Shown: positions 1,152 through 24,012, counted from the stretch's first letter. The stretch: 64,000 bases of DNA from an uncultured Acidobacteriota bacterium (GCA_963770895.1 CAVYRF010000002.1:3488001-3552000), one strand, 5' to 3'. Numbers and translations are program-made. Notes: a model not told the origin generated them from the sequence alone.

Positions 1152-1342
1152 CCCAGCGGCCCGTGACGAGAATGCGGAATCCGACGATGGCGGTACCCGT
1201 TTCGCCCGCAAGGCGACCATCCTGGTCGGAGCGCAGCGACGGTGAAGCTCGGATTGGGTCAAGCTGCGATGATGGCCTTTCAACGACTCGCCTGATCGCT
1301 CATCGGAAAGCCAAGGCCGCGATCTTCGGCAAACGACCACCG

Positions 1343-2593
1343 ATGAGGCAGAAACGAAGCAGCGAGAAGGAAGCGGCAGCCCTCGATCAGCTGATCGCCG
1401 AAATCATCGTCGACGCTTACGGCGACGACGAGCAGTTGTGGGCTTTCCGCGAAGCGTTCGAGCAGAACGTCGACCTGCCGTGCGACGGGTTCGTGATCGG
1501 TGAGCCGGTGTCCGTCACAGCGTTCGACTACGACGGCAACCCGCGGCGCGGCCTGATCGCCACTTGTCGTCGTGACGACGGATCGAACCACGTGATGGCG
1601 GCGGCCGATGTCGCCTTCCCCTCGCAGTCCATCGGCGGGCGGCACATTGCAGCCTACCGGAGGTGGCTCGGCCTCGAGGCACTGCCTCCTGAGGTCGAAC
1701 CCGAATCTGGCCGCAGGCGCGGGCACAAGTCCGCGGCGAGCCACCTCAACCCGACGGGGCCAGTCGAGCTCGTCGCTCTCTCGGTCAAGGAGAGGGCCGC
1801 GCGTTGCCGCCTTCTCGGAAGCGAGCGCGTCCTCACTCTGCGTGCAAGCCGGCTGTGGGAAGTCGTCCCAGGTGAGGTCCTGACCGTCCGTCCGCGCAGG
1901 CAATGGAGCTACGCCGGCCATCCGTATCTTTCGGGTGAAGTCGAGTCGTCGCGGCTCGACGTGGCGGCGCTGGGGCTCGTTCCGCTCAGGATGGAGAACC
2001 GTGGAATCTGGAACCCGGCGGACGAGTACTGGGGAGAGGCGGACGAGCCGGTCGAGGAGTGGGCCAAGTCGATCATTGCCGGTGGCCGCCGACCGGCGTT
2101 CGAAATGGAACAAATCCTGCCGTCGTCAGATCCAGATGATCCCGACTCCGACCCAATCTGCGTGTCCAACGACCTCAAGGAGGCCGGTGCAATCAGCGAA
2201 GCGCGAGCTCTGTTGATGAAGCTCTGCGAAGCAGATCTACGCTGCTTGGACGCGCACGCCCATCTCGGCAATCTTGTGTTCGACGACAGTCCCAAGCAGG
2301 CGATCCGGCACTACGAAGCCGGCGTTCGCATCGGGGAACTCTCGCTTGGCCCCACGTTCGACGGCCTACTGCCATGGGGCCTCATGGACAACCGTCCGTT
2401 CATCCGCTGCATGCATGGATTCGGCCTGTGCCTCTGGCGACTCGGTCGATTCGACGAGGCAGGGAGCGTCTTCGACCGGATGCTTTGGTCGAACCCTTCG
2501 GACAACCAAGGCGTGCGATTCCTGATCGACGAAGTGCGTCGTCATACGCGCTGGGAAGATCGTGCGTCGGAGCGGCAGCGGCCTTCCTTATAG
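1343..2593 (+). CDS. Hypothetical protein: N-terminal CcbP-like calcium-binding domain plus C-terminal TPR region
   Basis: IIVDAYGDDEQLW..VIGEPVSV motif, then DLRCLDAHAHLGNL and NRPFIRCMHGFGLCLWRLG..NPSDNQGVRFL. ATG 1343 chosen because the ORF-track start (788) overlaps the upstream gene. Confidence 0.7.
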   Translation: MRQKRSSEKEAAALDQLIAEIIVDAYGDDEQLWAFREAFEQNVDLPCDGFVIGEPVSVTAFDYDGNPRRGLIATCRRDDGSNHVMAAADVAFPSQSIGGRHIAAYRRWLGLEALPPEVEPESGRRRGHKSAASHLNPTGPVELVALSVKERAARCRLLGSERVLTLRASRLWEVVPGEVLTVRPRRQWSYAGHPYLSGEVESSRLDVAALGLVPLRMENRGIWNPADEYWGEADEPVEEWAKSIIAGGRRPAFEMEQILPSSDPDDPDSDPICVSNDLKEAGAISEARALLMKLCEADLRCLDAHAHLGNLVFDDSPKQAIRHYEAGVRIGELSLGPTFDGLLPWGLMDNRPFIRCMHGFGLCLWRLGRFDEAGSVFDRMLWSNPSDNQGVRFLIDEVRRHTRWEDRASERQRPSL

Positions 2594-2659
2594 GAGGGGC
2601 CGGCGTCGACTCTCTCACGGTCCGAGGCACTTCTCGCAGCTCGGGTGCGGGTAACGTGC

Positions 2660-2699
2660 CCTCAAAATGAGACGGCAAATTGCCAACAAACCCCCAGGG
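2660..2699. repeat. Copy A of a 40-bp imperfect direct repeat
   Basis: CCTCAAAATGAGACGGCAAATTGCCAACAAACCCCCAGGG; 35/40 identical to 4488-4527 by manual alignment. Confidence 0.85.
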
Positions 2700-2907
2700 G
2701 TTCATAGATAAGTTGCCATGTCATCCTTCGAGGACGAAAAGTAAGCCGGGGGTTATCCCGCGGACCCAAAAGACTCCGGGCGAGCACCTGCGGTGGATCT
2801 CCGTTGCGTCTCCCGCCCGAAAGCGACGATCTATTCCGACGAGACAAGCACCGATTCCATGGGAGAGACTCAACCCGAGTCGTTTCGCGGATCATGGAGC
2901 GATTCGA

Positions 2908-3317
2908 TCACAGGCGGAGCAGCAGCACGAAGTAGGTTATTCCGGCGGCTGCCGTGAGACCGATGACAACCTTCTCCTGCATGGGGAACCACACAAATTG
3001 GCGATTCTTTGTTCGGTTGTAAGCTGGTAATGACCAGCCAGGCCAAGCGCTTGACCAACAAAGAGAAGAACGCCGATACCAAAAGCTGCACGTGCCATTG
3101 GGGTCGTGGCGAGACCGAGGACAGGTAGCAGGACGACACCCGCCACAAACGTTAGCATTCCCACTATATTTACATAATCAGATGGAACGAGCCATGGGAT
3201 ACTGCCCTCGTCCCCTACTGCGGCTTCCCGTTCCAGCCGCCATTTGAAGAATGTTACCTGAAAACCGAGAATCAACCCTGTGGGCGTCCATAGGTCACGA
3301 AGAACTGGGTCTATCAT
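2908..3317 (-). pseudogene. Small integral membrane protein, frameshifted near 3021
   Basis: Hydrophobic ORF up to ..GHYQL. A shifted frame continues YNRTKNRQFVWFPMQEKVVIGLTAAAGITYFVLLLRL* with a clean TM helix and a stop at 2908-2910. Confidence 0.6.
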
Positions 3318-3350
3318 CCACTATCCTCAATTCTGCTGCTCTGTGAAAGA

Positions 3351-3773
3351 TCACGTTTCTCCTTCGGCAGCGCGCAAAGCGGCCAGGACTGCCCTGCATG
3401 CGTCGATCAGATCACCGAGCAGCGTTTCGTTGATGTCGAGGATTCCCTCGTATTCCGCGAGATTCCGTTTCTCGTGGGCCTTAGCCAGTACTCGCCACAC
3501 TGAGGGTGGGATGCCGAGGGTATGTGGGAGCGTTTGAAAAACGAGATAGCGGCTCTCAGAGCGATAGCCTAAACGGCGCAACGCAGCAAGTGCGAGGACG
3601 TGTGCAGCGTTATAAGCGAGATCAAAGCGGCTCTCGATCGAAAGCTCCGGCTTCGGGGCGTCAGCCAAGCGGGCCTCTCCCGACTGTCGAAGGCCCGCGA
3701 TCTCACCGGCCGAGGGCGCTTCGTGCTTGAGCTTGCCGGCCCGTACCAGATTCTCCAGCTCAGGTGAGGTCAT
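3351..3773 (-). CDS. HEPN-like protein (putative toxin partner of the MNT)
   Basis: RFDLAYNAAH..LAAL..GYR and HEKRNLAEYEG motifs; overlaps the 3' end of the nucleotidyltransferase gene. Confidence 0.75.
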   Translation of the reverse strand: MTSPELENLVRAGKLKHEAPSAGEIAGLRQSGEARLADAPKPELSIESRFDLAYNAAHVLALAALRRLGYRSESRYLVFQTLPHTLGIPPSVWRVLAKAHEKRNLAEYEGILDINETLLGDLIDACRAVLAALRAAEGET

Positions 3774-4362
3774 CGTCTGACCCGATCACGAAGAGCTTTC
3801 GCTGTGAAGCGATCCGGGCCGCAAACGAGTCGTCTTGCGCGACCTTGGCTCGCCAGTCGGCAAGGCTCACTATCGTCGGATTGACTGGACGAGCCAGGAG
3901 GGCTTCAGCCTGCTGCAATGCCTCGAACAGATCCGGGTAATGAAGCAAGTCGGAGATCACCATGAGGTCGATGTCGCTTCGGGCGTGGTCGTTTCCCTTG
4001 GCAACGGAGCCAAAGACGAATGCGGCGCGGATGCTTTCTGCCATCGCGCTCAGAGCATCCCGAAGTGGGTCAACGATGCCCACAGTCTTTGCGACTAGAC
4101 CTTGCAGCTCAGAGAATACCGGCGATCCTCGCCGGGCCTGGTAGTGCTTCTGATTCCCGACGCGAGTCACCTCGACCAACCCCGCCTCCTCCAAACGTGA
4201 GAGCTGACGGTGGACTGCGCCAACGCCGCCATTCACCAACCGGATTAACTCGGAGCTTTGGAAGCGGCGGTCGGGCTGTCCGAATAGGAATCTTAGAACA
4301 CGCTGCTGAATGGGCGTGAAGAGCGCATCGGCCAGGCCGCTCTCGGAGGTCTCTCTTCCCAT
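3760..4362 (-). CDS. HTH-minimal nucleotidyltransferase (MNT) fusion, putative antitoxin/regulator
   Basis: N-terminal wHTH (SSELIRLV..GVGAVHRQLSRLEEAGLV) and MNT motif FVFGSVAKG..SDIDLMVI; start at ATG 4362. Confidence 0.85.
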   Translation of the reverse strand: MGRETSESGLADALFTPIQQRVLRFLFGQPDRRFQSSELIRLVNGGVGAVHRQLSRLEEAGLVEVTRVGNQKHYQARRGSPVFSELQGLVAKTVGIVDPLRDALSAMAESIRAAFVFGSVAKGNDHARSDIDLMVISDLLHYPDLFEALQQAEALLARPVNPTIVSLADWRAKVAQDDSFAARIASQRKLFVIGSDDDLT

Positions 4363-4487
4363 TTCGGGTAGGATTATACCCAATCGGAAGCTGGTGGGCG
4401 ATGGCTGAGTGCGCCCAAGGCGCCCCTTCAGGAGGCGGTTACCGAGGGTCCGGGGGTGCCGCTGGGCTCCTGGACGGGGAAGGGCGT

Positions 4488-4527
4488 CCTCAGAATGAGA
4501 CGGCAAAAGGGCAACACACCCCCAGGG
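4488..4527. repeat. Copy B of the 40-bp imperfect direct repeat
   Basis: CCTCAGAATGAGACGGCAAAAGGGCAACACACCCCCAGGG; same orientation as copy A. Confidence 0.85.
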
Positions 4528-4897
4528 CTGCGTGCACCTTTTGTGATCCGCTGCGGGGCCGGCTTCCACGCCCTATTTGCCACTCCATCTCTCCGCACCC
4601 ATTTGCCGACCACCTGAAGAGCGTCCGGCCTCCGTCCAGGAAGCTCGCGGAGGCGGGCCAGAACTCGTGATACTCCGTCGCCGTCGCTCGGCGCAGAAGC
4701 TCGACCGCAACCATCGGAGAGACCGGGCTCGGATAGCGAGACTGGCTGAGCACGCGGATGAAGCCGTTCTGCGTCACGGCACACGAGGCCCAGCCCAGGC
4801 GGATCTCGGTCGAGATCCACTCGCGGGCGTGGCGGTGATCGACGTGATCGCGATCGAGCAAGGCGACCAGCGCGTTGACATCGAGCAGAGCGCGCAC
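4490..4897 (-). pseudogene. vapC: VapC PIN-domain toxin, C-terminally truncated
   Basis: MRALLDVNALVALLD..H..H..W..C.VTQNGFIRVLS..HEFWP is typical of VapC. Similarity stops near 4630 and the expected distal acidic motifs (TDxYLxALA, TFD) are missing. Confidence 0.75.
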
Positions 4898-12463: not shown

Positions 12464-14422
12464 ATGTCGAAAGGCACCATGCGGCTCCAGACTCCTCTCG
12501 TGCGGGACAACGGCGTTCTGCGGCCGGCCAGCTGGGACGAGGCTTTGGAGCGCGCTGCCCAGGGTTTTCGCGCGGCGGTGGAACGGAAGGGACCGCAGGC
12601 GTTCGGTCTCTTCAGCTGCTCGAAGACCACCAACGAGATGAACTTCATGGCACAGAAGTTCGCTCGCGTGGCTTTGGGCAGCAACAATATCGACAGCTGC
12701 AACCGTACCTGACACGCCCCCAGCGTCGTCGGTCTGGCGACGGTCTTCGGAATGGGCGGTGGGACGACCTCCTACCAGGAGATCCACGAGACGGATCTGC
12801 TCGTGCTGTGGGGCAGCAACGCCCGCGAGACGCATCCGATCTTCTTCCATCACGTCCTCAAGGGGATCCACAACGGCGCGCGGCTGTACGTCGTCGATCC
12901 GCGGCGGACCACCTCCGCCGAATGGGCGGTGGGGCACATGGCGCTCAGCGTGGGGACCGACATCGCCCTGGCCAACACCCTGGCGCGCGAGATCCTGGTC
13001 TCGGGGCTGGAAAACCGCTCGTTCATCGAAAACGCCACCAGCGGCTTCGACGAATACCGCGCCAGCATCATCGACGAATGGACCCTGGAGCGGGGCGCGG
13101 CGGTGACCGGGGTGCCGCCGGCGGCGATCCGCGACATGGCGCACGCCTACGCGCGCGCCGATCGCGCGGTGATCTGCTGGACGCTCGGCATCACCGAGCA
13201 TCACAACGCGGTCGACAACGTGCGGGCGCTGATCAACCTGGCGCTGCTCACCGGCCACGTCGGGCGCTACGGCTCCGGGCTGTCGCCTTTGCGCGGCCAG
13301 AACAACGTGCAGGGCGGCGGCGACATGGGCGCCCTGCCGGACCGCCTGGCGGGCTTCCAGCACGTCGAAAACGACGAGGTGCGCGGCCGCTTCGAGCGCG
13401 CCTGGGGAGTGCGCATCCCGCCGAAGAAGGGCTGGCACCTGAGCGGCATGTTCGACGCCATGGAGCGCGGCGACATGACGGCGCTCTACGTCATCGGCGA
13501 AAATCCGGCCAGCTCCGAGGCCGACCAGCATCGCACCGTGCGGCTGCTGTCGGGGCTCGACACGCTGGTGGTGCAGGACATGGTGATGACGCGCACGGCC
13601 GAGCTGGCCGACGTGGTGCTGCCGGCCGCCGCCGGGTGGTGCGAATCCGACGGCACGGTGACCAACAGCGAGCGGCGGGTGCAGCGGGTGCGGCGCGCCC
13701 TGCCGCCGCCGGAAGGGGTGCGCGACGACATCCAGATCATCCTTGGCCTGGCGCGGCACCTGGGATGCGACCTCGGCGACCCGACGCCGGAACAGATCTG
13801 GGACGAAGTGCGGTCGCTGAGCCCGATGCACGGCGGCATGTCGTATGCGCGGCTGGAGGGCGGCGGCCTGCAGTGGCCGTGCTACGACGACTCGCATCCG
13901 GGCGAGCTGTTCCTGCACGCGCGCCTGTGGGAGCGCCCGGTGCTCGGGCCGCGGGCGCCTTTCGGCGTCGTGATCGACGAGCCGCCGGTCGAAGAGCTGA
14001 GCGCAGAGTTCCCGCTGCGCCTGACCACCGGCCGGCGCCTGGATTCCTACAACACCGGGGTGCAGACGGGCCTTTTCGCCTCGCCGCTGCGGCGCCGCGA
14101 AACGCTCGACCTGGCGGCCGCGGATGCGCGGCGGCTGGGCATCGCCGACGGCGACATGGTGCGCATCGTGTCGCGGCGCGGCACCGTGCTGGCGCCGGCG
14201 CGCATCGATCCGGGGATGCTGGAAGGACTGGTGTTCCTGACGCTGCACTTCCCCGACCAGGTGGCGACCAACGAGCTGACGGTCGATTTTGTCGACCCGC
14301 TGTCCGGCACCTCCGAGTTCAAAGCCGCGGCGGTGCGGGTCGAGCCCGCCGGCGTGCCGCTCGCGGCAGAGGCAACCGCGGCGGCGGCCAAGCCGGCGCA
14401 CCACCTGGCGCCGGTCGGTTGA
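12464..14422 (+). CDS. fdhF: Selenocysteine-containing formate dehydrogenase catalytic (Mo/W-bisPGD) subunit; Sec TGA at 12710-12712
   Basis: The two track ORFs are in one frame joined by IDSCNRT-TGA-HAPSVVGL. Sec-His pair, LRGQNNVQG Arg motif and a C-terminal molybdopterin-binding domain are present. Confidence 0.9.
12713..12742 (+). promoter_or_regulatory. Bacterial SECIS element
   Basis: Hairpin CGUCGUC-GGUCU-GGCGACG (12724-12742) begins 11 nt after the TGA and carries the GGUCUG seen in the E. coli fdhF SECIS. Confidence 0.85.
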
Positions 14423-14483
14423 GGGCTGTCGGCGCGCGGCGCGGCGGACCGCGGATCTCGAGCTGCTTGCCAGGCTGACCGGC

Positions 14484-16595
14484 ATGGACCTGCACTTCAC
14501 TGGCGATTCGCCTTCCGCAGAGGAGCAAGACGCCGTCGACGCCTGCCTTGCCGCGTTGACCGGCGGGGCCGTCCCCGCCGCTCCGCCGGAGGGGGCCGCG
14601 GCGATGGCATTCGTGGCCTCGCCGCAGGGGTTGCGCCAGTACCTGCTGCCGGCGCTGCATGCCCTGCAGGGCCGGATGGGATGGATCAGCCCCGGCGGCC
14701 TCAACCACGTGTGCCGGCGGCTGGGCGTGGCGCCGGCCGACGCGTTCGGCGTGGCCGGCTTCTACGCCCTGTTCCAGACCCGCCCGCAGCCCCCGGTCGC
14801 CGTCCACGTCTGCGACGACATCGGCTGCCGCTTCGCGCCGGCCGGCGGCGAGGCCCTGTGCGCCGCGCTCGCCCAGGTGCTCGGTCCCGAGGGCGGCGGC
14901 GCGCACGCCGCCCCGGCGCGCGGCCAGGCCCCCGGCGCTGCCGGCGATGTCGCCGCTGGCGGTGATGGCGGCGAGGGTAGCGCCGCCGGCGATGGTGGCG
15001 GGCCTGGGAGGCGCGCCGACGCCCGCGCCGGCGGCAACGGCCACGGCGATGGCGGCGCCGGGATGCCCGGCCTGGCCGGCGTCACCTGGCATCGCAGCCC
15101 CTGCCTGGGCCTGTGCGAGCGGGCGCCGGCGGCGCTGGTGATCGCCGCCGGCAGCTCGCCGCGCGAACGGGCGGTGGCGCCGGCCTCCGTGGCCGCGCTG
15201 GTGGACCTGGCGGCGGCATGGGCCAAGGAGGGGGAGGAGACCGGAGGCGGCGCCGCCGGCGAGCCGGCTGCGGGCCAGGCTGCGGCCCGCGAGACCGAGT
15301 CGCCGGCCCAGGCGGTGGCCGTTTCCGTGCCGCAGGTCGGCGGCAAGGAGGAGCCGGGCGGCCCGCTGCGGCTGCTGGCCCGCGTCGGCCGGATCGACCC
15401 CGGAAGCCTGGACGACTACCGCGCCGCGGACGGCATGCTGGCGCTGCGCCGCGCCCTGGAGATGGGGCCGGAGCGGGTGGTGCGCGAAGTGCTCGATGCC
15501 AAGCTGGTGGGGCGCGGCGGCGCCGCCTTCCCCACCGGCCAGAAGTGGCAGGGCGTGCGCTCGGCGGTGCTGCCGCGCTTCCTGGTCTGCAACGCCGACG
15601 AATCCGAGCCGGGGACGTTCAAGGACCGGGTGCTGATGGAGGGCGACCCCTACACCCTGATCGAGGCGATGGCGATCGCCGGCTTCGCCACCGGCTGCGA
15701 GCAGGGGTACCTCTACATCCGCGGCGAATACCCGCTGGCGACCGAGCGGCTGGCGCACGCCATCCGGCGCTGCCGCGACCACGGTTTCCTGGGCCCCGAC
15801 CTGCTGGGCCACGGCGTGCGCTTCGACATCGAGCTGCGGCGCGGCGCCGGCGCCTACATCTGCGGCGAGGAGATGGCGCTGCTCAACTCGCTGGAAGGCC
15901 GCCGCGGCGAGCCGCGCAACAAGCCGCCCTTTCCCACCCAGGTGGGCCTGTTCGGCAAACCCACGGTGATCAACAACGTCGAAACGCTCTACAACATCCC
16001 GGCGATCGTGATCGGCGGCGGCAAGGCCTTTGCCGCCCTGGGCACCGAGCGCTCGACCGGTCCCAAGCTGTTTTGCGTCTCCGGCCACGCGCGGCGCCCG
16101 GGCGTCTACGAAGTGACGTTCGGTGTGACGCTGCGCCAGCTGCTCGACCTGGCCGGCGGCATCGGCGGCAGCGGCCGGCTCCAGGCCGTGCTGCTGGGCG
16201 GCGCGGCGGGCGGCTTCGTCACCCCCGAGGAGCTGGACGTGCCGCTGACCTTCGAAGGCACCCGCGCCGCCGGCGCCAGCCTGGGCTCCGGCGTGATCAT
16301 GCCGTTCGACGACACCGTCGACCTGCGCCAGGTGCTGCGGCGCATCGCGCAGTTTTTCCGCGACGAGTCGTGCGGTCAGTGCGTGCCCTGCCGCGTCGGC
16401 GTGGTGCGCCAGGAGGAGGTTCTGCACCGCCTCGCGGTCGACCGCCCGCTGGGATCGATCCGCCAGGAGGTGGGTCTGCTCAAGGAGCTGGGCCAGGTGA
16501 TGCGCGACGCGTCGATCTGCGGCCTGGGCCAGACGGCGTCGTCCGCGGTGGAGTCGGCGCTGGCCAAGTTCCCCATCTTCCAGGAGGCGCAATGA
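14484..16595 (+). CDS. NuoE-NuoF-like fused diaphorase subunit (2Fe-2S, FMN/NAD, 4Fe-4S)
   Basis: LLPALHALQ..C.DIGC..CLGLC, then GRGGAAFPTG, CNADESEPGTFKD, GAYICGEE and ESCGQCVPCR..CGLG. Confidence 0.9.
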   Translation: MDLHFTGDSPSAEEQDAVDACLAALTGGAVPAAPPEGAAAMAFVASPQGLRQYLLPALHALQGRMGWISPGGLNHVCRRLGVAPADAFGVAGFYALFQTRPQPPVAVHVCDDIGCRFAPAGGEALCAALAQVLGPEGGGAHAAPARGQAPGAAGDVAAGGDGGEGSAAGDGGGPGRRADARAGGNGHGDGGAGMPGLAGVTWHRSPCLGLCERAPAALVIAAGSSPRERAVAPASVAALVDLAAAWAKEGEETGGGAAGEPAAGQAAARETESPAQAVAVSVPQVGGKEEPGGPLRLLARVGRIDPGSLDDYRAADGMLALRRALEMGPERVVREVLDAKLVGRGGAAFPTGQKWQGVRSAVLPRFLVCNADESEPGTFKDRVLMEGDPYTLIEAMAIAGFATGCEQGYLYIRGEYPLATERLAHAIRRCRDHGFLGPDLLGHGVRFDIELRRGAGAYICGEEMALLNSLEGRRGEPRNKPPFPTQVGLFGKPTVINNVETLYNIPAIVIGGGKAFAALGTERSTGPKLFCVSGHARRPGVYEVTFGVTLRQLLDLAGGIGGSGRLQAVLLGGAAGGFVTPEELDVPLTFEGTRAAGASLGSGVIMPFDDTVDLRQVLRRIAQFFRDESCGQCVPCRVGVVRQEEVLHRLAVDRPLGSIRQEVGLLKELGQVMRDASICGLGQTASSAVESALAKFPIFQEAQ

Positions 16596-17665
16596 GCGGC
16601 AGCGGCGGCGACACCTCGGCAACTCCGGTCACCTCGGCGAACCCCGACGACACCGGCCCCCGGGCGCTCATCCCGGTGCCGCGCGGCCCGGTGCCGGTGG
16701 CGCCGCCGCCGCGCCCGCGCGCCCAGGTCGAGCTGACCATCGACGGCCGCCCGGTCACGGTGCCGGAAGGGTCCACCCTGCTCGACGCGGCGCGCCGCCT
16801 GGCGATCGACACGCCCACCCTCTGCTTCCTGGAGAACCTGACCCCGGTCAACGTCTGCCGCGTCTGCGTCGTCGAGGTCGAGGGCGCCCGCACCCTGGTG
16901 CCCGCCTGCTCGCGCAAGGCCGAAGCCGGCATGGTCGTGCACACCGATTCGCCGCGCGTGCGGCTCAGCCGGCGCCTGGTCCTGGAGCTGCTCTCTTCGT
17001 CGGTGGACGTATCGACCGCGCCGCAGCTCCAGCGCTACATGCGCGACTACGACGCCGCGCCCGAGCGCTTCGGCCCCGCGGCGCCGCCCGCCGCGGCCGG
17101 CGAGCGCGACGCCGCCCGCCCGGGCCACCACCACGCGCCGCCCGTCGAAGACGGTGCCGGCGCGCCGGAAGGGGCGGCCGTGGCGGCGCCGGCCGCGGCG
17201 ACCGTCGGCCAGCCGGTCAAGGTGGACAACGACCTCTACGTGCGCGACTACTCGAAATGCATCCTCTGCTACAAGTGCGTCGAGGCGTGCGGCACGGATG
17301 CCCAGAACACCTTCGCCATCGCCCTGGCCGGCCGCGGCTTCGACGCCCGCATCTCGACCGAGTACGACGTGCCGTTGACCGATTCGGCCTGCGTCTACTG
17401 CGGCAACTGCATCGGCGTCTGCCCGACCGGCGCCCTGATGTTCAAGAGCGAGCACGACCTGCGCCAGGCCGGCGCCTGGGACGAGCCCGCCCAGACCCAG
17501 GCCGACACCATCTGCCCCTACTGCGGCGTCGGCTGCACTCTCACCGTGCACGTCCAGGAAGAGCGTATCGTCAAGGTGACTTCGCCGATCGAGAGCAGCG
17601 TTACCAACGGCCACCTCTGTATCAAAGGGCGTTTCGGCTGGGAGTGGGTGAACCTGCGCAAATAG
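16592..17665 (+). CDS. Fe-S subunit: NuoG-like 2Fe-2S and 2x4Fe-4S plus C-terminal molybdopterin-oxidoreductase 4Fe-4S domain
   Basis: PTLC..CRVCVVE..C, CILCYKCVEAC, CVYCGNCIGVCP, then TICPYCGVGC..LCIKGRFG. ATGA overlap with the previous gene. Confidence 0.9.
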   Translation: MSGSGGDTSATPVTSANPDDTGPRALIPVPRGPVPVAPPPRPRAQVELTIDGRPVTVPEGSTLLDAARRLAIDTPTLCFLENLTPVNVCRVCVVEVEGARTLVPACSRKAEAGMVVHTDSPRVRLSRRLVLELLSSSVDVSTAPQLQRYMRDYDAAPERFGPAAPPAAAGERDAARPGHHHAPPVEDGAGAPEGAAVAAPAAATVGQPVKVDNDLYVRDYSKCILCYKCVEACGTDAQNTFAIALAGRGFDARISTEYDVPLTDSACVYCGNCIGVCPTGALMFKSEHDLRQAGAWDEPAQTQADTICPYCGVGCTLTVHVQEERIVKVTSPIESSVTNGHLCIKGRFGWEWVNLRK

Positions 17666-17677
17666 CGCGCCGCGGCG

Positions 17678-18469
17678 TCAGCGCCGGCCGAGCTGCGGCA
17701 GGGTCACGTCACCCGCGGGGCAGTGGAGGCTGAGACGCAGCGAGGCGTTTTCGGCGGCCAGCACCTTGACCGGCTCTCCCAGGTCCGCCGCCAGGCGGTC
17801 CAGCCCGGCGGTTTCGGCCGCGGGGCCCAGAACGGTCAGAGATACCAGGGTGCAGCCGGCAGGCGAGTCGACGGCGGGGTGGGTGGTGGTGGGGCTCCAT
17901 TCGATCAGGAAGGGTTTGAGCCTGCCGTCGGGGAGGATCTCCGCGGTGCGCCACGCGAGCAGCTTGCCATCGGGCCGCAGGCGCGAGCCCGGCTGCAGCG
18001 GGCCGGTCTGGATGCCGTCCGCCTGGAGGCGGGCGATCGCCGCGTCGGCGTGACGGGCGCCGACGGCCCAGCCGACAGGCGTCAGCTCATGCAGCTGCGA
18101 TAGCGCCTGCGCCAGGCCATCCGCGCCCGCGCCAGGCTGGGGCGCGATGAGCTCCAGGTAGGTGTGCGGCCCCAGGCTGAGCAGCGCATTGCGGGTGCCG
18201 CGGCCGGGGTGCTGGCCGCCGCGTGCCGGAGCCACGCCGGTGAGCGCGGTCAGCTGGCGGATGCCGGCATCCAGGTCGGCAATCCCAACAAGGACGTGGT
18301 CGAGGGTCAGTTTGGACATGGTGGTGTCAGCGGACATGACCGGCGCGGCCGCGACGGGGCTCAATCCCAGAACTGGCGCGAACCCCACGGCGCCGCAGAC
18401 CAGCAGGACGCCGAACGGAACCGCCACGGCGGTCGTCCGGCGCTGGTGCTTTCGGCGGCGCCCCGGCAT
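17678..18469 (-). CDS. VOC/glyoxalase-like (Glyoxalase_3) protein, possible signal peptide
   Basis: LDHVLVG..GGQHPGRGTRNALL..YLELIAP..PFLIEW motifs. Confidence 0.8.
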   Translation of the reverse strand: MPGRRRKHQRRTTAVAVPFGVLLVCGAVGFAPVLGLSPVAAAPVMSADTTMSKLTLDHVLVGIADLDAGIRQLTALTGVAPARGGQHPGRGTRNALLSLGPHTYLELIAPQPGAGADGLAQALSQLHELTPVGWAVGARHADAAIARLQADGIQTGPLQPGSRLRPDGKLLAWRTAEILPDGRLKPFLIEWSPTTTHPAVDSPAGCTLVSLTVLGPAAETAGLDRLAADLGEPVKVLAAENASLRLSLHCPAGDVTLPQLGRR

Positions 18470-18689
18470 CGATTGATACTAGCGGAAAAAGGCGGCGCTT
18501 GCCGCGCCGACGTCCAACGGTGGCGAAGCGAAGCGTCTCTCCCATGGCAACTCCGCGCCCCAGGCGCTGGCAGCCATGGCCGCGAGGAACGCCCGTAGCC
18601 ATCTATCTATAGGCTTGTGTCCAAACAGGGCTCTCAATAGAATTTTTGCGGTACCTTCATCGTATAGCCATGGCTGGAAGGGCTTCGGA

Positions 18690-21600
18690 ATGCGACTTTG
18701 CATGTGTCCTTGGACACGAAAGGCGCGATCGCTCACCACGCTCGTCTTGCTCTGGACGGCGCTCACGACCGGTGGAGCCGAAGCCTCTGGTCCGGCCGTG
18801 GTATCCAGCTTGTTGCTGACGCCGGTATCGGAGGACTTCGAAATCTGCGAAGGGGGCGCCGCTGCCTGGGGATGGACATCCGACACAGCGCACCGCAACG
18901 ATCTCTATTTCGTAAGCTCCGCCGGTAAGGTGAAGTCTTCGTGGACGTTGGGTGATCCTATTCAGCGGGTTTTCACGATCTCGAACTGCAAGACCATTTG
19001 GGTTCTCTCTTCCAACTTGAAGCATCTCTCAACGATCAACAGAGAGACCGACGACCCCCACTCGACGCCACCGTCGGTGACCACGGACGATGAGATCAAA
19101 CTGGTGATCCCATCTGAAACCGGCGACAAAGCTTGGGTGATTTACCAATCCAGGCGTCCCGATGTTGCGTTAGCCATGCGAGAGGGGAACCGGGTCATCG
19201 TCAAAGCGCTATCAGGCCTGGCGAAGGACCTGCAAACCTCGTACTCCGCAAGCGCGGAACACGGCAACAAGCTATGGGTGGTGCCGTTCAACGGCAACGG
19301 CGTCTTGCTCCTCGATGGCCGCAACGTGCGCAGGTACTTTAATGTTGAGATGGCGGCAATCAATGCAAGTAATGACCAGGCGCTCGCTTGGGCATTGCCG
19401 AGGCCGCCACGGAAAGGAGTCTACGCACTTACCGCGCGCGGTGAGATCCTCAACCAGGGCAGGCCGTTTCTCGACGACGTGGAATTTCACAGTCTCGAGA
19501 TCAGGAAAGGAGAAGGTGCGTATATCTGGGCGATCAGCCACGACGACCAACTTTACGTGCTGGAATCGAGGCCGTCCGGTGGTTCTTGGCAAGTGAAGGT
19601 CGTCAGCCGCCCCAGGCTGGGTGGCCAGGTGCGCGCTGGAACGATCGTATCCGTAGGCGACGGCGCCGCTGCATGGCTGGTTCCTCCCGCTAGAAGCGGA
19701 ACCCGCCAGAGGTGGAACCAGCTCTGGCGCTTGGAGGTTCGCGACGAGAACGTCGAGATCGAACTTGTGCCGCCCGACCTGTACGATGGCAAGCCAATCC
19801 GGCAGCTCTATTGGAGCGCTGAGGATCGCGGCCACTTCTGGATCATGAACTCTGATCTGTCGATTTACGAGATTGCTGTGTCGGCCGGGATCGCACCGTC
19901 CACAGCCAAGAAAGTGGTCGACTTCCCCTTGTCGAGCCTGAGCCTGGAAGGCATTTACCCCACGAATCTTGTCAACCATTACTGGGTCAAGACAGCGTCC
20001 TTTTGCTCGCTCATGAATACGGCGCCCGACATCGGGGTCGCCCAGGTCGTCTTGGGCGACACGACCTTCGATCTCGAGACGCATCCGTTGCCCATTATCC
20101 GGCATCAGATCGCCGCCGGCCGGACGGTTGACGCAAGCATCCGGCTGCCGGGTGTGCTTGCGGTGACTCGCGCGGCCAGCCCTGCGGGGCTGCAAGGGAC
20201 CGCTGGCATGCACTTGGAGCTGACCCTACTGAAGCAAGGCGGGCAAAACGCCTCCGCCTTCGCCGGCGGTGAGGGCGGGCTGGGGGACGGCGTTGCGTTC
20301 CTGCCGTTGTGGGTCAACGGCAAGCGCGCCTGGGGCGACGTCTTTGACATGGAGCTGCACGGTCACGACGCCGAGGGAGGCTCTGATGTTCGCATCCGGT
20401 GGAGAGGCATCAAGTTCTCGCCTACTTTGGCTGAAGCGATACTCGCGAGCCCTTACCTCAAGGGCCTGGTGATCTTCCTCCTGCCCACGCTGCTGCTCTT
20501 GGTGGTGCTGAAGAAAGAGATCGCGGGCCGGCGCTGGATTCCGATCGCGATCCCGTTGCTCGAAATGCTGTTCCTCAAGTGGCTTCCGGACAGCGCCGTG
20601 GTTTCGCCTGCCGAGCTGGCGACCGTGGCCTGCGCTTCGCTGGCTGCGCTGCTGCCGGTGGGCGCCTTCTCACCCCGGCTGTTCCGCGAGTTGGCATCAC
20701 TGCTGCCCTATCGGCTGGCGGCGCCCTTTGCCATGCAGGTGCGGGCTATCCGCGGCCGGGTCTTCGCCGACTACTGCACAGAGCTGGAGGACCGGCTGGA
20801 GATCCTGCGTCGGGATGCCAATGACGAAAGCTATATCGCAGCCCCAGTGAAGATCGTCGAAGGCTCGCCAAGGACCTCGCCGCCCGTTGGTGCGACGCTG
20901 CGGGTGGGTGACGTGCACAGCCTGCAGCAAGACGCCAGTGAACGCAGCAGCGTCTTGATTGTCGCCCCTGGGGGACGTGGCAAGAGCGCGCTCTGGAACG
21001 AGCTTCTATGGCGAAGCCTGAAGGCCTTTAAGGCCGACCCTTTCTGCCCGTTGCCGGTGATTGGTGATGCCGGCGGTACCACGGTCGAGAAGATGATCGA
21101 GGCGGGGCTGGGGCGATACGCGATTTCCGCGGAGCATACCGCTACCCAGTTGGCCGCCGGCGAGCTCATGGTGTGGGTTGACAATGCCAGCACCACCAAC
21201 TTGGCGGTGTCCGTGCTGGAGGCGTTCTTGCGTTCAAAGAACGGTGAGTGGACCCGATTGTGCTTGGCGACACGGCCGAACAGAGATTTTCGAGCCGCGT
21301 TGCAACAAGGTGCATCCAAGTGGGTGGCGATAGAGCCGTGCGGCCTCGACGAGGAATCAGCAAAGGCTTTTTATTGGGAGTATGCAAAGCAGGACGCTGC
21401 GCATCTCAAGAAAGAGTTCAATGCTGACGCGGTACGTCGCCGGCGAGACCGGCTCCTGCCCGCCTGCCGCGGCAAGGACGGTAGCTATTTACCACTGCTC
21501 GTCAGGCTCTGCAGCCGTGCCGACACCGACGAAGCGAGCTCCATCAACGAGATCTATCGGATCACGCTTGAAAAACTGATTGAGAGAGTTACCGGCGGCG

Positions 21601-22283
21601 CCACCGAGGCGACCGCAAAGATGGTGCGAGGCGCGGAACAGCTGGCGCTGGATAGCTATTGGGAGGATCAATCCCGCAGCTTCTCGCGGGAGCGCCCCGC
21701 TCCTGAACAGACGCAGCTGGTCGACGATCTCTTGCGCGCGGGTGTCCTGGCGGTTGCCGATAGCCAGGATTGGCGGCAGCACGTATCGTCAAATCCTCAG
21801 TATGTTCGCTTCTTTCACGAATCAGTACAGTCGTACCTGACGGCGAAGGGGCTCGCGAATGCGAAGAGCTGGAAATGTTTTGGCAGAGCTGCGGGCGATC
21901 GGGATTTCTTGAAGGCAGAAATCGATCTGGGCGACGGAGTCGGACCAGAATTGTTTCAGATGTGTCTCCACGTGTTTGAACCGAAATGGAAGCTCAGGCA
22001 GACACTGGAGGCAGAGCTGATGCAATGGACCGAGATCTATCGCGAAGTACTGAGGATAGTGGACGTGAAAAAGGGGTTGACCCCTGCCGACCAGCTGGCG
22101 CTCGAGGCAAAGCTGACAGGGCCACCGAGCGATGCCTCCGGGTACCTCCGTCTGGCCGTCAAGCTGGCGCTGGAAGAGGATGCGAAGAACGATAGTGCGG
22201 AGCACCTGGGCCGTCTATTTGCCCAGGTCGCGCCAATTGCGTGGGAGCAAGCGGTGGCGAACAACCTGGTGAGAGTCGCATGA
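18690..22283 (+). CDS. Membrane-anchored NACHT/STAND-like NTPase with large exported N-terminal beta-rich (propeller-like) region
   Basis: Signal-like N-terminus, recurrent xWV/xWI strands, hydrophobic helices ~20460-20730, Walker A APGGRGKS (~20964), LMVWVDN, YLPLLVRL and RFFHESVQSYLTA. Lower GC than the flanks. Confidence 0.7.
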   Translation: MRLCMCPWTRKARSLTTLVLLWTALTTGGAEASGPAVVSSLLLTPVSEDFEICEGGAAAWGWTSDTAHRNDLYFVSSAGKVKSSWTLGDPIQRVFTISNCKTIWVLSSNLKHLSTINRETDDPHSTPPSVTTDDEIKLVIPSETGDKAWVIYQSRRPDVALAMREGNRVIVKALSGLAKDLQTSYSASAEHGNKLWVVPFNGNGVLLLDGRNVRRYFNVEMAAINASNDQALAWALPRPPRKGVYALTARGEILNQGRPFLDDVEFHSLEIRKGEGAYIWAISHDDQLYVLESRPSGGSWQVKVVSRPRLGGQVRAGTIVSVGDGAAAWLVPPARSGTRQRWNQLWRLEVRDENVEIELVPPDLYDGKPIRQLYWSAEDRGHFWIMNSDLSIYEIAVSAGIAPSTAKKVVDFPLSSLSLEGIYPTNLVNHYWVKTASFCSLMNTAPDIGVAQVVLGDTTFDLETHPLPIIRHQIAAGRTVDASIRLPGVLAVTRAASPAGLQGTAGMHLELTLLKQGGQNASAFAGGEGGLGDGVAFLPLWVNGKRAWGDVFDMELHGHDAEGGSDVRIRWRGIKFSPTLAEAILASPYLKGLVIFLLPTLLLLVVLKKEIAGRRWIPIAIPLLEMLFLKWLPDSAVVSPAELATVACASLAALLPVGAFSPRLFRELASLLPYRLAAPFAMQVRAIRGRVFADYCTELEDRLEILRRDANDESYIAAPVKIVEGSPRTSPPVGATLRVGDVHSLQQDASERSSVLIVAPGGRGKSALWNELLWRSLKAFKADPFCPLPVIGDAGGTTVEKMIEAGLGRYAISAEHTATQLAAGELMVWVDNASTTNLAVSVLEAFLRSKNGEWTRLCLATRPNRDFRAALQQGASKWVAIEPCGLDEESAKAFYWEYAKQDAAHLKKEFNADAVRRRRDRLLPACRGKDGSYLPLLVRLCSRADTDEASSINEIYRITLEKLIERVTGGATEATAKMVRGAEQLALDSYWEDQSRSFSRERPAPEQTQLVDDLLRAGVLAVADSQDWRQHVSSNPQYVRFFHESVQSYLTAKGLANAKSWKCFGRAAGDRDFLKAEIDLGDGVGPELFQMCLHVFEPKWKLRQTLEAELMQWTEIYREVLRIVDVKKGLTPADQLALEAKLTGPPSDASGYLRLAVKLALEEDAKNDSAEHLGRLFAQVAPIAWEQAVANNLVRVA

Positions 22284-22287
22284 GGTC

Positions 22288-24012
22288 GTGACCGAGCATG
22301 GCGCGGCGGAGCGGCCGACGATCGCTGCGCGGTTGGCGGCGGGGCTGAGCGGCGACGGCGCCTTCTATGCGCTGTTGACGCTGCTGGTCTGGGGGGCGAC
22401 GGCGCCGCTGGCCGGGTTGTGGCAGGACGACACGTCGCTGCTGTTTATCGCCTTGCAGCGGCATGGGCGGGGGCTGGCGACGCTGCTGGCGCCGGCCGTC
22501 GGCCCGCTGCGGCGGCTGAACGATCTGCCGTACGCCCTGGCGCTGGACACGCCGCACCCGGTGCGGGCGCTGCAGGGGATGTGCGGGGCGCTGTGGGTGG
22601 GGCAGGCGCTGGTCGCGGGCTGGATCGCGGGGCTGCTGCTGCCACGGCGGCCGCTGGCGCGGCTGCTGGTGGTGGCGTTGACGCTGACGGCGACCAGCGA
22701 CTACCTGACCGACAACCTGACGGCGGTGGGCTACAACTTCGGGGTGCTCACCTTCCTGGTCTCCCTGGGCAGCGGGCTGCGCTTCCTGCGCTGCGGCGGC
22801 GCGGCCTGGCTGGCGGCCGCCGTGACGGCGCTGGCGGTGAGCCTGCTGACCCTGGAGGTGTGCATGCCCGCGCTGCCGTTCCTGCCCCTTCTGGTTGCCT
22901 GGCTGGCGGGGCCGCGGCCGCGGCGACGGTCGGTGGCGCTGCTGGTGGCCTGGGGGGCGGTGGCGGCGCCGCTGGTGCTGATCGAATGGCGTTACCTGCA
23001 CGATGCCACGGGCTACGCCGCGGTGGCGATGCTGCCGATGAGCCGCGCCCAGTTTGTCGGCCGCGCGCTGGACCTGTGGACCGCCAACTTCCTGCCGTGG
23101 CGGTGGGCTTTTCGCCCCGAGGTTTGGTTTCCCAGGCCGCCCGCCGTCATCCCCGGCGCGCTGATGGCGGCCGCGGCGGTCGTCGCCGTCGCCGCTCTGG
23201 CGGTGCGCGTGCGGCGCACGCTGGGCGCGGCGCCGCAGGCGGAGCCGCCGCCGGCCAGCGCGCTGCGGGTGCTGGGGCTCGCGGCGCTGCTGGCGCTCAT
23301 GGCGCTGGCCGCCAACGCCGCGTTCGCCCAGGTGCAGATGGCCGAGATCCACTACCGCACCCACGTGCTGTCGCGGATCTGGGTGTCGCTCGCGCTCGGC
23401 ATCGTGGCGGCCTGGGGCGCGGCGCGCTGGCCGCGCCGGCGGCTGGCGTGGCTGGTGGTGCCGGCGCTGTTCGTCGGGTTTGGCACCTGGGGCGGCCTGG
23501 ACCGCCAGGACCAGTGGCTTGCGACCTGGCGCCAGCACCGGCGCGAGCTGCTGTCCATCGTCAGCGCCGCGCCGGCGGTGCGCCAGGGCACCGCGGTGAT
23601 CCTGCGCAGCGATCCGCTGCCGCCGCGGTACCTGGCGACCCAGGTCGACTACTTGGCGCACGACTGGATGGCGCTGCTGTACGACCAGCCGGACATCGAC
23701 AGCCTGCGGCTCGATGCGCGCCTGGGCAGCGGCTGCCGGCCGCTGGCGAACGGGCTGGACTGCTGGCACATGGGCAAGGCCGCATGTTTTGCCGCGCAGA
23801 CCTGCCCGCCCGACCACATCGCCTTCGACCGCCTGCTGGTGTTCGATTTTGACGCGGCGGCCGGGGTCTACCGGCTGCGGCAGTCGCTGACCGGCGACCC
23901 GCTGGCGGCCGGAGTCGCGGCGCCGGCCGCGGCGGCGTCCTACCGGCCCGCCGCGCGCATCGTGGAGCGGCCGCTGACCACGGCGCAGCGCCGCCTGCTG
24001 CTGCTGCCTTGA
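22288..24012 (+). CDS. Polytopic membrane protein, GT-C-like glycosyltransferase candidate
   Basis: WQDD motif after the first TM, about 10 TM helices and a periplasmic C-terminal domain. Confidence 0.6.
   Translation: MTEHGAAERPTIAARLAAGLSGDGAFYALLTLLVWGATAPLAGLWQDDTSLLFIALQRHGRGLATLLAPAVGPLRRLNDLPYALALDTPHPVRALQGMCGALWVGQALVAGWIAGLLLPRRPLARLLVVALTLTATSDYLTDNLTAVGYNFGVLTFLVSLGSGLRFLRCGGAAWLAAAVTALAVSLLTLEVCMPALPFLPLLVAWLAGPRPRRRSVALLVAWGAVAAPLVLIEWRYLHDATGYAAVAMLPMSRAQFVGRALDLWTANFLPWRWAFRPEVWFPRPPAVIPGALMAAAAVVAVAALAVRVRRTLGAAPQAEPPPASALRVLGLAALLALMALAANAAFAQVQMAEIHYRTHVLSRIWVSLALGIVAAWGAARWPRRRLAWLVVPALFVGFGTWGGLDRQDQWLATWRQHRRELLSIVSAAPAVRQGTAVILRSDPLPPRYLATQVDYLAHDWMALLYDQPDIDSLRLDARLGSGCRPLANGLDCWHMGKAACFAAQTCPPDHIAFDRLLVFDFDAAAGVYRLRQSLTGDPLAAGVAAPAAAASYRPAARIVERPLTTAQRRLLLLP

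Follow-up and report, generated by a model that had tools for sequence, protein, structure and literature searches.

Do bacteria use NLR-type switches to read cues from outside the cytoplasmic membrane? The NLR-related and Avs proteins known from bacteria are regarded as cytoplasmic sensors that detect phage proteins and are built in the order effector, NTPase, sensor. Another arrangement is suggested by a gene located at positions 18690..22283 of a 64,000-nucleotide stretch of DNA from an uncultured Acidobacteriota bacterium (GCA_963770895.1 CAVYRF010000002.1:3488001-3552000). This whole stretch, as analysed here, is called the window; coordinates refer to it unless a locus is named, and all features of the gene lie on its plus strand. 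An initial annotation had described the product as a receptor-like membrane NACHT/STAND NTPase with a sensor outside and an NTPase inside, and had proposed a horizontally acquired, undescribed defence or signalling receptor.

The gene is a single intact open reading frame (ORF) of 1197 codons plus stop, from the ATG at 18690 to the TGA at 22281-22283. Structural modelling strongly supports a cytoplasmic NACHT-type STAND NTPase at its C-terminal end, and the protein belongs to a family in which a constant transmembrane (TM)-NACHT core carries exchangeable exported domains. We consider, with moderate confidence, that the product is an intact polytopic inner-membrane protein built as a receptor, sensing outside and switching inside, and that envelope sensing in a conflict or immune context is its likeliest role.

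Predicted structure of the NACHT-type STAND module

AlphaFold2 modelling of residues 575-1197 from 45 sequences yielded a model with a predicted local distance difference test score (pLDDT) of 91.3 and a predicted template modelling score (pTM) of 0.88. TM helices and a set of basic helices (residues 662-709) are followed in this model by an alpha/beta NTPase with helical and winged-helix domains. The module spans residues about 715-1164 (20832..22181) and is arranged as nucleotide-binding domain (NBD), helical domain 1 (HD1), winged-helix domain (WHD) and helical domain 2 (HD2). Foldseek aligned it to NLRC4 (E 2.8e-11), NOD2 (E 7.7e-10) and many NLRP3 entries, with 186 matches at E<=1e-3. When 48,161 representative chains were searched with VIA-align (VIA), the top seven rows were all animal NACHT NLRs (Z 17.1-14.7). 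The best match was NOD2 (Z 17.1, root-mean-square deviation (rmsd) 4.2, 385 residues aligned), followed by NLRP9 (Z 16.6), NLRP3 (16.3, 15.6 and 15.5), NLRP2 (15.2) and NLRP1 (14.7). The plant NB-ARC protein NRC2 (12.4), Cdc6/Orc1 (10.8), MalT (10.1), Avs5 (9.3 and 9.0) and Apaf-1 (9.1) ranked lower. The model is closer to closed, ADP-bound forms (NOD2, rmsd 4.2) than to the NLRC4 chain of an active complex (rmsd 11.4).

Profile comparison links the family to NACHT proteins of the same genome. On contigs C2 and C1 of this genome (G000), outside the window, loci L054-L057 encode further proteins, at least four in number and about 950-1440 residues long, which look cytoplasmic and score above the Pfam NACHT cut-off. 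The protein studied here is not among the PF05729 matches of its genome (gathering cut-off 26.7 bits). Three of the four proteins were aligned, the fourth being dropped as no P-loop was found in its longest frame. With hhalign, the family profile matched this alignment over 286 columns with 95.9% probability (E 5.4e-9), bringing into register Walker A, Walker B, the sensor-1 Arg, the P-L-L motif and the winged-helix His motif. The ESM Atlas gave only feature matches below 0.9, to assorted STAND clusters, which serve as a lead only. A match to Bms1 in searches of solved structures (E 0.92 and 0.021) was rejected as a chance P-loop match. The NACHT/STAND class assigned by the initial annotation is thus supported by fold, by profile-profile comparison and by motifs, and the predicted conformation is a closed one, similar to NOD2 and NLRC4.

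All motifs named by the initial annotation were found in the places given. The Walker A motif APGGRGKS (residues 759-766, 20964..20987) is invariant in one family alignment (A1), and its G, G and K are invariant in a second (A2); GGRGKS (761-766) meets the pattern GxxxxGK[ST], with G, G and K invariant across the 45 aligned sequences. Sensor-1, A-T-R-P (860-863, 21267..21278), keeps its Arg in 45 of 45 sequences and its Pro in 39 of 45, and hhalign pairs this Arg with that of the Pfam-defined NACHT proteins. A YLPLL motif is found at residues 933-937. The winged-helix motif RFFHESVQSYLTA (1040-1052, 21807..21845) contains FFHESVQSYL (1041-1050); it aligns to the NACHT motif of the own-genome proteins, and its His is present in 44 of 45 sequences. 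The C-terminal tail (1165-1197, 22182..22280) is helical, with helices at 575-592 and 597-622 in the numbering of the 575-1197 model, and holds no recognised domain. The view that the protein ends without a recognisable effector agrees with the scans of Pfam, PADLOC and NCBIfam, which returned no family at E<=1.

NACHT Walker B motifs consist of a hydrophobic strand ending in Asp and followed by one or more further acidic residues, of the type D-G-h-D/S-E. The Walker B of the present protein, LMVWVDNAST (826-835, 21165..21194), begins with LMVWVDN (826-832), and D831 is kept in 45 of 45 sequences. The Glu four residues past this Asp, found in 39 of 45 sequences, is Thr835 here and in no other of the 45; the closest relative, P0003, has Ala. 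The protein thus reads D-N-A-S-T where the family reads D-G-L-S-E and the own-genome NACHT consensus DGLDE, which confirms that its Walker B is atypical. Because the Glu is replaced by Thr here and by Ala in the nearest relative, we predict that this subgroup, including the present copy, probably binds nucleotide and hydrolyses it slowly.

The predicted exported N-terminal part

The AlphaFold2 model of residues 1-600, built from 19 sequences (pLDDT 83.3, pTM 0.79), shows a leader helix (8-25), an all-beta region (37-461) and a second beta domain (479-576) that runs into a helix (580-597). Residues 1-32 (18690..18785) form a signal-like peptide, as had been annotated, with a basic n-region, a hydrophobic core and A-E-A before S32; signal or lipobox leaders occur in homologues. 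The all-beta region (18798..20072) is a predicted propeller of about nine blades. Trp is conserved at positions 60, 104, 149, 196, 234, 280, 329, 384 and 432, one per blade with a spacing of about 46 residues; of the aligned sequences, 11 of 13 keep Cys53 and 11 of 14 keep Cys100. The best VIA match of the propeller was itself nine-bladed (Z 23.1, 363 residues aligned, rmsd 4.3), and the next were the nine-bladed propellers of eIF3b/eIF2A (Z 21.0-17). A membrane-proximal beta-sandwich (479-576, 20124..20417) is defined by the strands of the model; its W571 is conserved in 18 of 18 sequences, and the ectodomain fold searches barely covered this domain. The Trp-rich beta repeats of the initial annotation are therefore accounted for by the nine Trp, the propeller fold and the second beta domain.

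With Foldseek, the top matches of the ectodomain were periplasmic sensors of Bacteroides hybrid two-component systems, BT4663 (E 2.2e-12) and BT4673 (E 7.6e-12). Like these sensors (4a2l/4a2m and 3ott), the protein would have an exported propeller and a small beta domain directly before a membrane helix. Both features speak for an ordinary TM signalling receptor with no immune function, which would respond to a cue from the environment or from other cells, for example a glycan, and use its NACHT module as a nucleotide-gated scaffold, as in MalT-type regulators, with no cell-death or anti-invader output. We regard such a receptor as possible but doubtful. The comparison with the two-component sensors gave low template modelling scores (TM-scores; 0.21-0.32), and the ectodomain is better matched by generic nine-bladed propellers. 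Moreover, the Bacteroides proteins contain a pair of propellers and pass their signal to a histidine kinase, and the present protein has neither a kinase domain nor a Pfam Reg_prop or Y_Y_Y match. Its identity as a hybrid two-component sensor was accordingly rejected, the resemblance being at the level of the fold only.

The open frame extends upstream to 18576 (18576 to 22283), and an in-frame ATG at this position would add 38 residues. The ATG at 18690 was kept as the start because the 114 preceding bases hold an AT-rich, promoter-like stretch, in which ATG 18576 itself lies, because GGAAGGG is found 7 nt 5' of 18690 and because the N-termini of homologues coincide with the hydrophobic leader. 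In the upstream intergenic region (18470..18689), read directly from the sequence, the AT-rich stretch lies at about 18590-18665; a scan with the sigma-70 consensus found no promoter-like site in this region. A start at 18576 would turn the leader into a signal anchor and leave the topology of the large domains unchanged.

Membrane segment and topology

Three predicted TM helices link the two parts, in agreement with the initial annotation. TM helix 1 (residues 588-606, 20451..20507, out to in) and TM helix 3 (640-660, 20607..20669, out to in) are indicated by hydropathy, by the alignment and by helices 14-32 and 66-86 of the 575-1197 model. TM helix 2 (617-631, 20538..20582, in to out) corresponds to model helix 43-57 and is less hydrophobic; its conserved positions are W616, P618 and an acidic residue. 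The mean hydropathy in the family is 1.12 for this helix, 1.76 for TM helix 1 and 2.07 for TM helix 3. They are followed by conserved basic juxtamembrane helices (662-709, 20673..20816; model helices 88-135), with S661-P662, F665, R666, P673 and P679 conserved. In the 45-sequence alignment, the family mean of Lys plus Arg is 2.4 in the loop after TM helix 1, 0.64 in the loop after TM helix 2 and 7.25 in the 40 residues after TM helix 3. Prediction of self-association for residues 575-719 in four copies gave a score of 0.00 against a mark of 0.42, with the fold of the partners uncertain.

The survey of leaders covered the 84 family members of the set P0002-P0152 in which 600 or more residues precede the P-loop. 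A strongly hydrophobic stretch is present within the first 60 residues in 49 of the 84, and 14 of these 49 have a lipobox-like Cys. The other 35 are mixed: about a dozen have borderline leaders (1.5-2.0), and many gene calls begin inside the propeller. The leader of the present protein, one of the borderline ones, scores 1.78, under the threshold of 2.0 used. Hydropathy, charge bias, models and homologues together fit an N-terminus outside, three spans and a C-terminus inside; no other arrangement would give the NTPase access to nucleotide.

Could both large domains instead be cytoplasmic, with a leader that is neither cleaved nor exported and a hydrophobic block that forms a two-helix hairpin anchor? 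A strict-threshold hydropathy scan, which detects only two strong segments in the protein, P0003 and P0004, would agree with this, as would the sub-threshold score of the leader. We nevertheless judge it extremely improbable, given the strong leaders and lipobox-like Cys of long relatives, the three helices of the modelled block, the charge bias, which fits three spans with the N-terminus out and the C-terminus in, and the conserved Cys pair of the N-terminal domain. The signal and lipobox-type leaders of homologues and the positive-inside charge pattern support the topology of the initial annotation, with an exported sensor and a cytoplasmic NTPase.

A constant core combined with exchangeable exported domains

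When 1.84 billion representatives of 50% identity clusters were scanned in full with HMMER, 229 proteins matched at E<=1e-3, the number falling to 195 at 1e-10 and to 128 at 1e-30. The majority have 1100-1400 residues and match only residues about 540-1190; about 15 match the propeller too. Behind signal peptides, alternative N-terminal domains were found among the 37 members scanned: HEAT repeats in eight and a Sortilin-Vps10-type propeller in one. Sequence identity was lower in the ectodomain (25-32%) than in the cytoplasmic part (30-51%) in all 13 pairs compared. The family thus consists of a constant TM-NACHT core with exchangeable exported domains. An apparent natural split between ectodomain and TM-NACHT part in a metagenome-assembled genome (MAG) of Phycisphaerales (locus L030, 5494-9818) was rejected, as N bases lie at the junction of the two ORFs.

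Additions to the core are rare. Two of the 37 members, from the group of P0050, P0103 and P0090, have a C-terminal EAD1 domain (23.8 and 20.8 bits, cut-off 24.2), appended past the point that corresponds to the C-terminal tail of the present protein. In one protein of the same group, 1679 residues long, the family module is followed by another STAND module (nSTAND1/NACHT). EAD1 and the second STAND module are parts of conflict systems and the sole add-ons seen, and no kinase, cyclase or DNA-binding output domain was detected in the 37 members; both findings argue against an ordinary signalling receptor.

The family was seen in Acidobacteriota, Myxococcota, Planctomycetota and Bacteroidota. Hosts include Acidobacteriota MAGs, a Thermoanaerobaculia MAG, a Phycisphaerales MAG, Pyxidicoccus and Mucilaginibacter, as well as Archangium, Cystobacter, Hyalangium, Vitiosangium, Stigmatella and Melittangium of the Archangiaceae. 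Relatives are named 'hypothetical protein' or 'NACHT domain-containing protein' in databases.

Distribution and origin of the gene

The gene differs in composition from its surroundings, so that the lower-GC islet of the initial annotation is borne out. Its overall GC content is 0.608; in 500-nt bins it ranges from 0.58 to 0.66, against 0.70-0.80 in both flanks, and the GC content at third codon positions (GC3) is 0.73, against 0.85-0.95 in six neighbouring genes. It is present in a single copy in its 8.16-Mb genome. It was found in none of nine genomes of the same genus (84-94% complete). Among 36 genomes of the same family, one (G021) has a copy. A search of 400 other Acidobacteriota genomes at E<=1e-10 did not recover the gene, and in the order around Cystobacter it was found in one of 120 other genomes. 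The closest genomic relative (locus L007) shares 43% identity over the C-terminal module and has a GC3 of 0.49 in a host of about 0.9. In same-genus genomes, the NuoEF-like block upstream of the gene ends at a point corresponding to about 17666-17700 of the window, and the genes found downstream of the receptor gene lie at unrelated places; the receptor gene therefore coincides with a break in synteny. Its atypical composition and patchy distribution fit the horizontal acquisition proposed by the initial annotation, which is the simplest reading of the sequence data and probably the correct one.

The G021 copy (L006, 5833-9418, contig G021:C1), the only other one found among 60 relatives, is spread over four reading frames, contains one in-frame TGA and has a GC content below that of its flanks. 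It is either a pseudogene or the product of an error-rich assembly. Broken copies also include the one at L028. DNA of the gene under study is present in public soil metagenome runs, and among the public sequencing runs listed with the gene there was no RNA run. Together with the Thr that replaces a Glu found in 39 of 45 relatives, the state of the G021 copy and the lack of a listed RNA run are what one would expect of a relic, acquired by transfer, deprived of its catalytic Walker-B residue and no longer functional in this genome. Such decay appears very unlikely to us. All 1197 codons are open with no frameshift, and they preserve Walker A and the Asp of Walker B, together with the Arg of sensor-1, the His of the WHD and the Trp of each of the nine blades. 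P0003 also lacks the Glu (Ala) and is full-length in the conserved part, which points to a variant tolerated in this subgroup. Activation of NLRs is driven by nucleotide binding, not by hydrolysis.

Gene neighbourhood

Upstream, on the opposite strand, the gene is flanked by a Glyoxalase_3 gene. Downstream, 4 nt past its stop codon, begins a 574-residue ORF (22288-24012, +) of native composition (GC3 0.95), whose coding strand is T-rich; an M16 peptidase gene comes next. No Pfam, NCBIfam or PADLOC match was obtained for the 574-residue ORF; it is probably not a functional partner, because its homologue in a same-genus genome lies at an unrelated place. Further upstream, parts resembling formate dehydrogenase and NuoG occur in an odd order (12752-17665, +): Molybdopterin and Molydop_binding domains at 12752-14422, a NuoE/NuoF-like fusion at about 14289-16595 and an ORF with Fer2_4, 4Fe-4S and Molybdop_Fe4S4 domains that stops at 17665. 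This order does not reflect truncation by the islet, since same-genus matches end at the same point. At the start of the window, PADLOC gave strong matches to candidate defence systems, namely PDC-S01 (3-1148, +, E 1.2e-105), PDC-M05B (3354-3773, -, E 8.5e-61) and PDC-M05A (3763-4569, -, E 9.3e-77). These genes have a lowered GC3 (0.65-0.81) and look like a small defence-like cluster. For the 20 genes between 4.5 and 37 kb of the window, PADLOC returned nothing except a TPR match.

Neighbourhoods were compared at 24 genomic and 18 metagenomic loci by GC3-guided gene calls and Pfam scans. This replaced an all-against-all BLAST of six-frame ORFs from the 24 loci, which was noisy owing to out-of-frame ORFs in high-GC DNA. 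The loci came from a motif scan with a single peptide pattern and are not a census. The immediate neighbours include genes for histidine kinases, NERD, thioredoxin, beta-lactamase, radical SAM, FGE-sulfatase and Schlafen/AlbA_2, in addition to the kinds named further below. A gene of the DUF4184/Zn-dependent phospholipase-C-like type lies directly downstream on the same strand at L023 (9760-10515), L029 (9639-10478), L040 (8547-9386) and L042 (1947-2720). It recurs only in Archangiaceae orthologues, and since these also share wider synteny, the linkage cannot be separated from descent; the DUF4184-type gene could be an effector or merely inherited synteny. In a Thermoanaerobaculia MAG (L009, 9797-11505), the receptor gene is succeeded by two ORFs (256 and 313 residues), with stop and start codons overlapping, and Pfam gave no match for either. 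The receptor gene looks like a single-gene unit, as the only recurrent downstream neighbour is restricted to the Archangiaceae, where wider synteny is common too. The single-gene islet described initially agrees with this, no partner being common to the lineages.

Comparison with known systems

In the accessible text of Kibby et al. (preprint 10.1101/2022.07.19.500537), the sensors of bacterial NACHT (bNACHT) proteins lie C-terminal to the NTPase and effectors are mostly N-terminal. The same text describes a 'TM regions' sensor class, proposed for membrane or periplasmic signals, and an effector-less clade (bNACHT01-like), effector-less bacterial NACHT proteins being reported as antiphage. The present protein shares with bNACHT systems, as far as that text describes them, the NACHT-type STAND core and the single-gene organisation, and one of their clades is likewise devoid of an effector. 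It differs in its order, with a large exported domain and then three TM helices ahead of a terminal NACHT module, and in having no PADLOC model match. The animal proteins NOD2, NLRC4 and NLRP3 (5irm, 4kxf and 7vtq) have the same NBD-HD1-WHD-HD2 order (Z 17.1-16.3), with Walker A, the sensor-1 Arg and the WHD His in common. However, identity to animal NLRs is 12-16%, and the present protein lacks LRR, CARD, PYD and the Walker-B Glu, is predicted to be integral to the membrane and would sense outside the cytoplasm.

Membrane-bound NLRs are known from a sea cucumber (J Biol Chem 2026, PMC13133943): the portion of this article available to us describes AjNLRC4 and AjNLR-new, one of them with extracellular Ig and intracellular NACHT domains. 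The logic of outside sensor and inside NACHT is similar, but these are animal proteins with Ig domains and another number of TM helices, and the likeness is drawn from their description only. 'Transmembrane STAND ATPases' fused to proteases are mentioned, in the accessible part of a preprint (10.1101/2025.11.14.688446), for Pepco systems; they represent a TM-bearing STAND class in bacterial defence and carry a protease, which the present protein does not. Membrane-proximal conflict systems and EAD adaptors are treated in the accessible parts of Kaur et al. 2020 and 2021.

Avs/AVAST proteins reside in the cytoplasm; their effector is N-terminal and their TPR-like sensor C-terminal, with the STAND module in between. 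Identity with them was ruled out by the different domain order, by the lack of TPR and effector domains and by the low Avs5 scores (Z 9.3 and 9.0). In KAP P-loop NTPases, reportedly described by Aravind et al. in 2004, TM helices are said to be inserted in the P-loop domain. This identity was rejected as well, all three TM helices of the present protein being N-terminal to NBD strand 1 and no PF07693 match being found.

Scans of 45 family members with PADLOC-DB v2.0.0, NLR/Avs-type models included, gave HEAT-type and a few weak, unrelated models only, none of which covers the NTPase, and no PADLOC family was assigned to the protein itself; the expectation that it would match no described defence system in PADLOC is upheld. 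The word 'undescribed' has to be narrowed. In the accessible literature, apart from supplementary tables, which may list members, no family was found with a signal peptide, an exported repeat domain and three TM helices ahead of a NACHT module at the C-terminal end, so that the architecture stands as undescribed there. Relatives are, on the other hand, already in databases, and TM-bearing NACHT and STAND proteins are named as classes in that literature. We therefore rate the protein as a receptor-type architecture among bacterial NACHT proteins that is uncharacterised, yet present in databases.

Proposed mechanism and role

The leader would export the nine-bladed propeller and the membrane-proximal beta-sandwich to the periplasmic side. 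By analogy with STAND and NLR proteins, an envelope ligand would bind or cluster the ectodomain, and the three-helix block with its basic juxtamembrane helices would relay the signal and release the closed state. Nucleotide exchange could then allow NACHT modules to assemble at the membrane. Two outputs are candidates. Once clustered, the TM helices and the basic juxtamembrane helices could perturb the membrane; alternatively, the C-terminus, at which a few relatives have EAD1, could recruit a partner from another locus. The oligomerising NTPase and the TM bundle acting as a pore, both suggested by the initial annotation, stay hypothetical, and the analysis yielded no evidence for such a pore. 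In a conflict or immune context, the protein would sense envelope-level threats such as phage or contact-dependent attack. A stronger version combines these elements into prokaryotic cell-surface pattern-recognition receptors, with exchangeable periplasmic domains (propeller, HEAT or Sortilin-like) that would recognise invaders or attackers at the envelope, prior to entry or in its course, and a NACHT oligomer, whose own three TM helices and juxtamembrane segments breach or depolarise the inner membrane. This would be a one-protein, resistosome-like abortive response, joining outside sensing of the TLR/RLK type to an inside switch of the NLR type; we consider it unlikely.

Several observations weigh against an immune receptor of this build. 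The scans that found no family in the protein at E<=1 included the Pfam NACHT model, NACHT matches on the family module remained below the threshold in the five of 37 members that showed one (best 24.4 bits, in P0039; cut-off 26.7), and sequence and profile searches of solved structures reached no solved NLR. The weak hydrophobicity of TM helix 2 and the two strong segments of the strict scan bear on the topology, which would fail with two TM helices in place of three. Absence of the Walker-B Glu could mean functional impairment of this copy. As for mobility, the window holds no tRNA, no integrase-like ORF marks the insertion, and a search for flanking direct or inverted repeats gave only short GC-rich chance matches. 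Nor is the gene in a defence island: the nearest PADLOC candidates (3-4569) lie 14 kb upstream, behind core metabolic genes. Across lineages, the 24 genomic and 18 metagenomic loci showed no conserved partner, and the immediate neighbours are diverse and of housekeeping type (DUF2911/TPR, ice-binding/He_PIG, Imm26, SH3, HtrA, MFS and PTS, besides those named above). Finally, the Archangiaceae orthologues are 72-97% identical and syntenic across genera, which looks like stable vertical inheritance and not like the turnover of defence genes.

The defence role considered by the initial annotation is thus not established, with neither a conserved partner nor adjacent defence genes, and the stable, syntenic orthologues of the Archangiaceae would equally fit a conserved cellular role. 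The same orthologues are on the side of an ordinary signalling receptor, as are the lack of an effector domain, a conserved partner and a defence island, and the absence of any PADLOC model for the family NTPase. Against such a receptor stand, in addition to the add-ons and the low TM-scores, the very patchy occurrence of the gene and its broken copies. Hints of a conflict type are the variability of the sensor as opposed to the constant core, the addition of EAD1 or of a second STAND module in a few members, patchy occurrence, broken copies and foreign composition. From these hints we slightly favour a role in conflict or defence over ordinary signalling.

The protein may detect threats or signals at the cell surface. 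The family places a large, exchangeable sensor outside the membrane and a NACHT switch inside, with no effector, and it offers a direct test of whether bacteria read extracytoplasmic cues by NLR-type switches and of how a signal passes across the membrane to a STAND module. Genetics should be feasible, since hosts such as Archangium, Cystobacter and Stigmatella are cultivable. If the immune role is true, the parallels between bacterial and eukaryotic innate immunity would extend to surface receptors; if the signalling role is true, the family would represent a new output class for bacterial transmembrane sensing.

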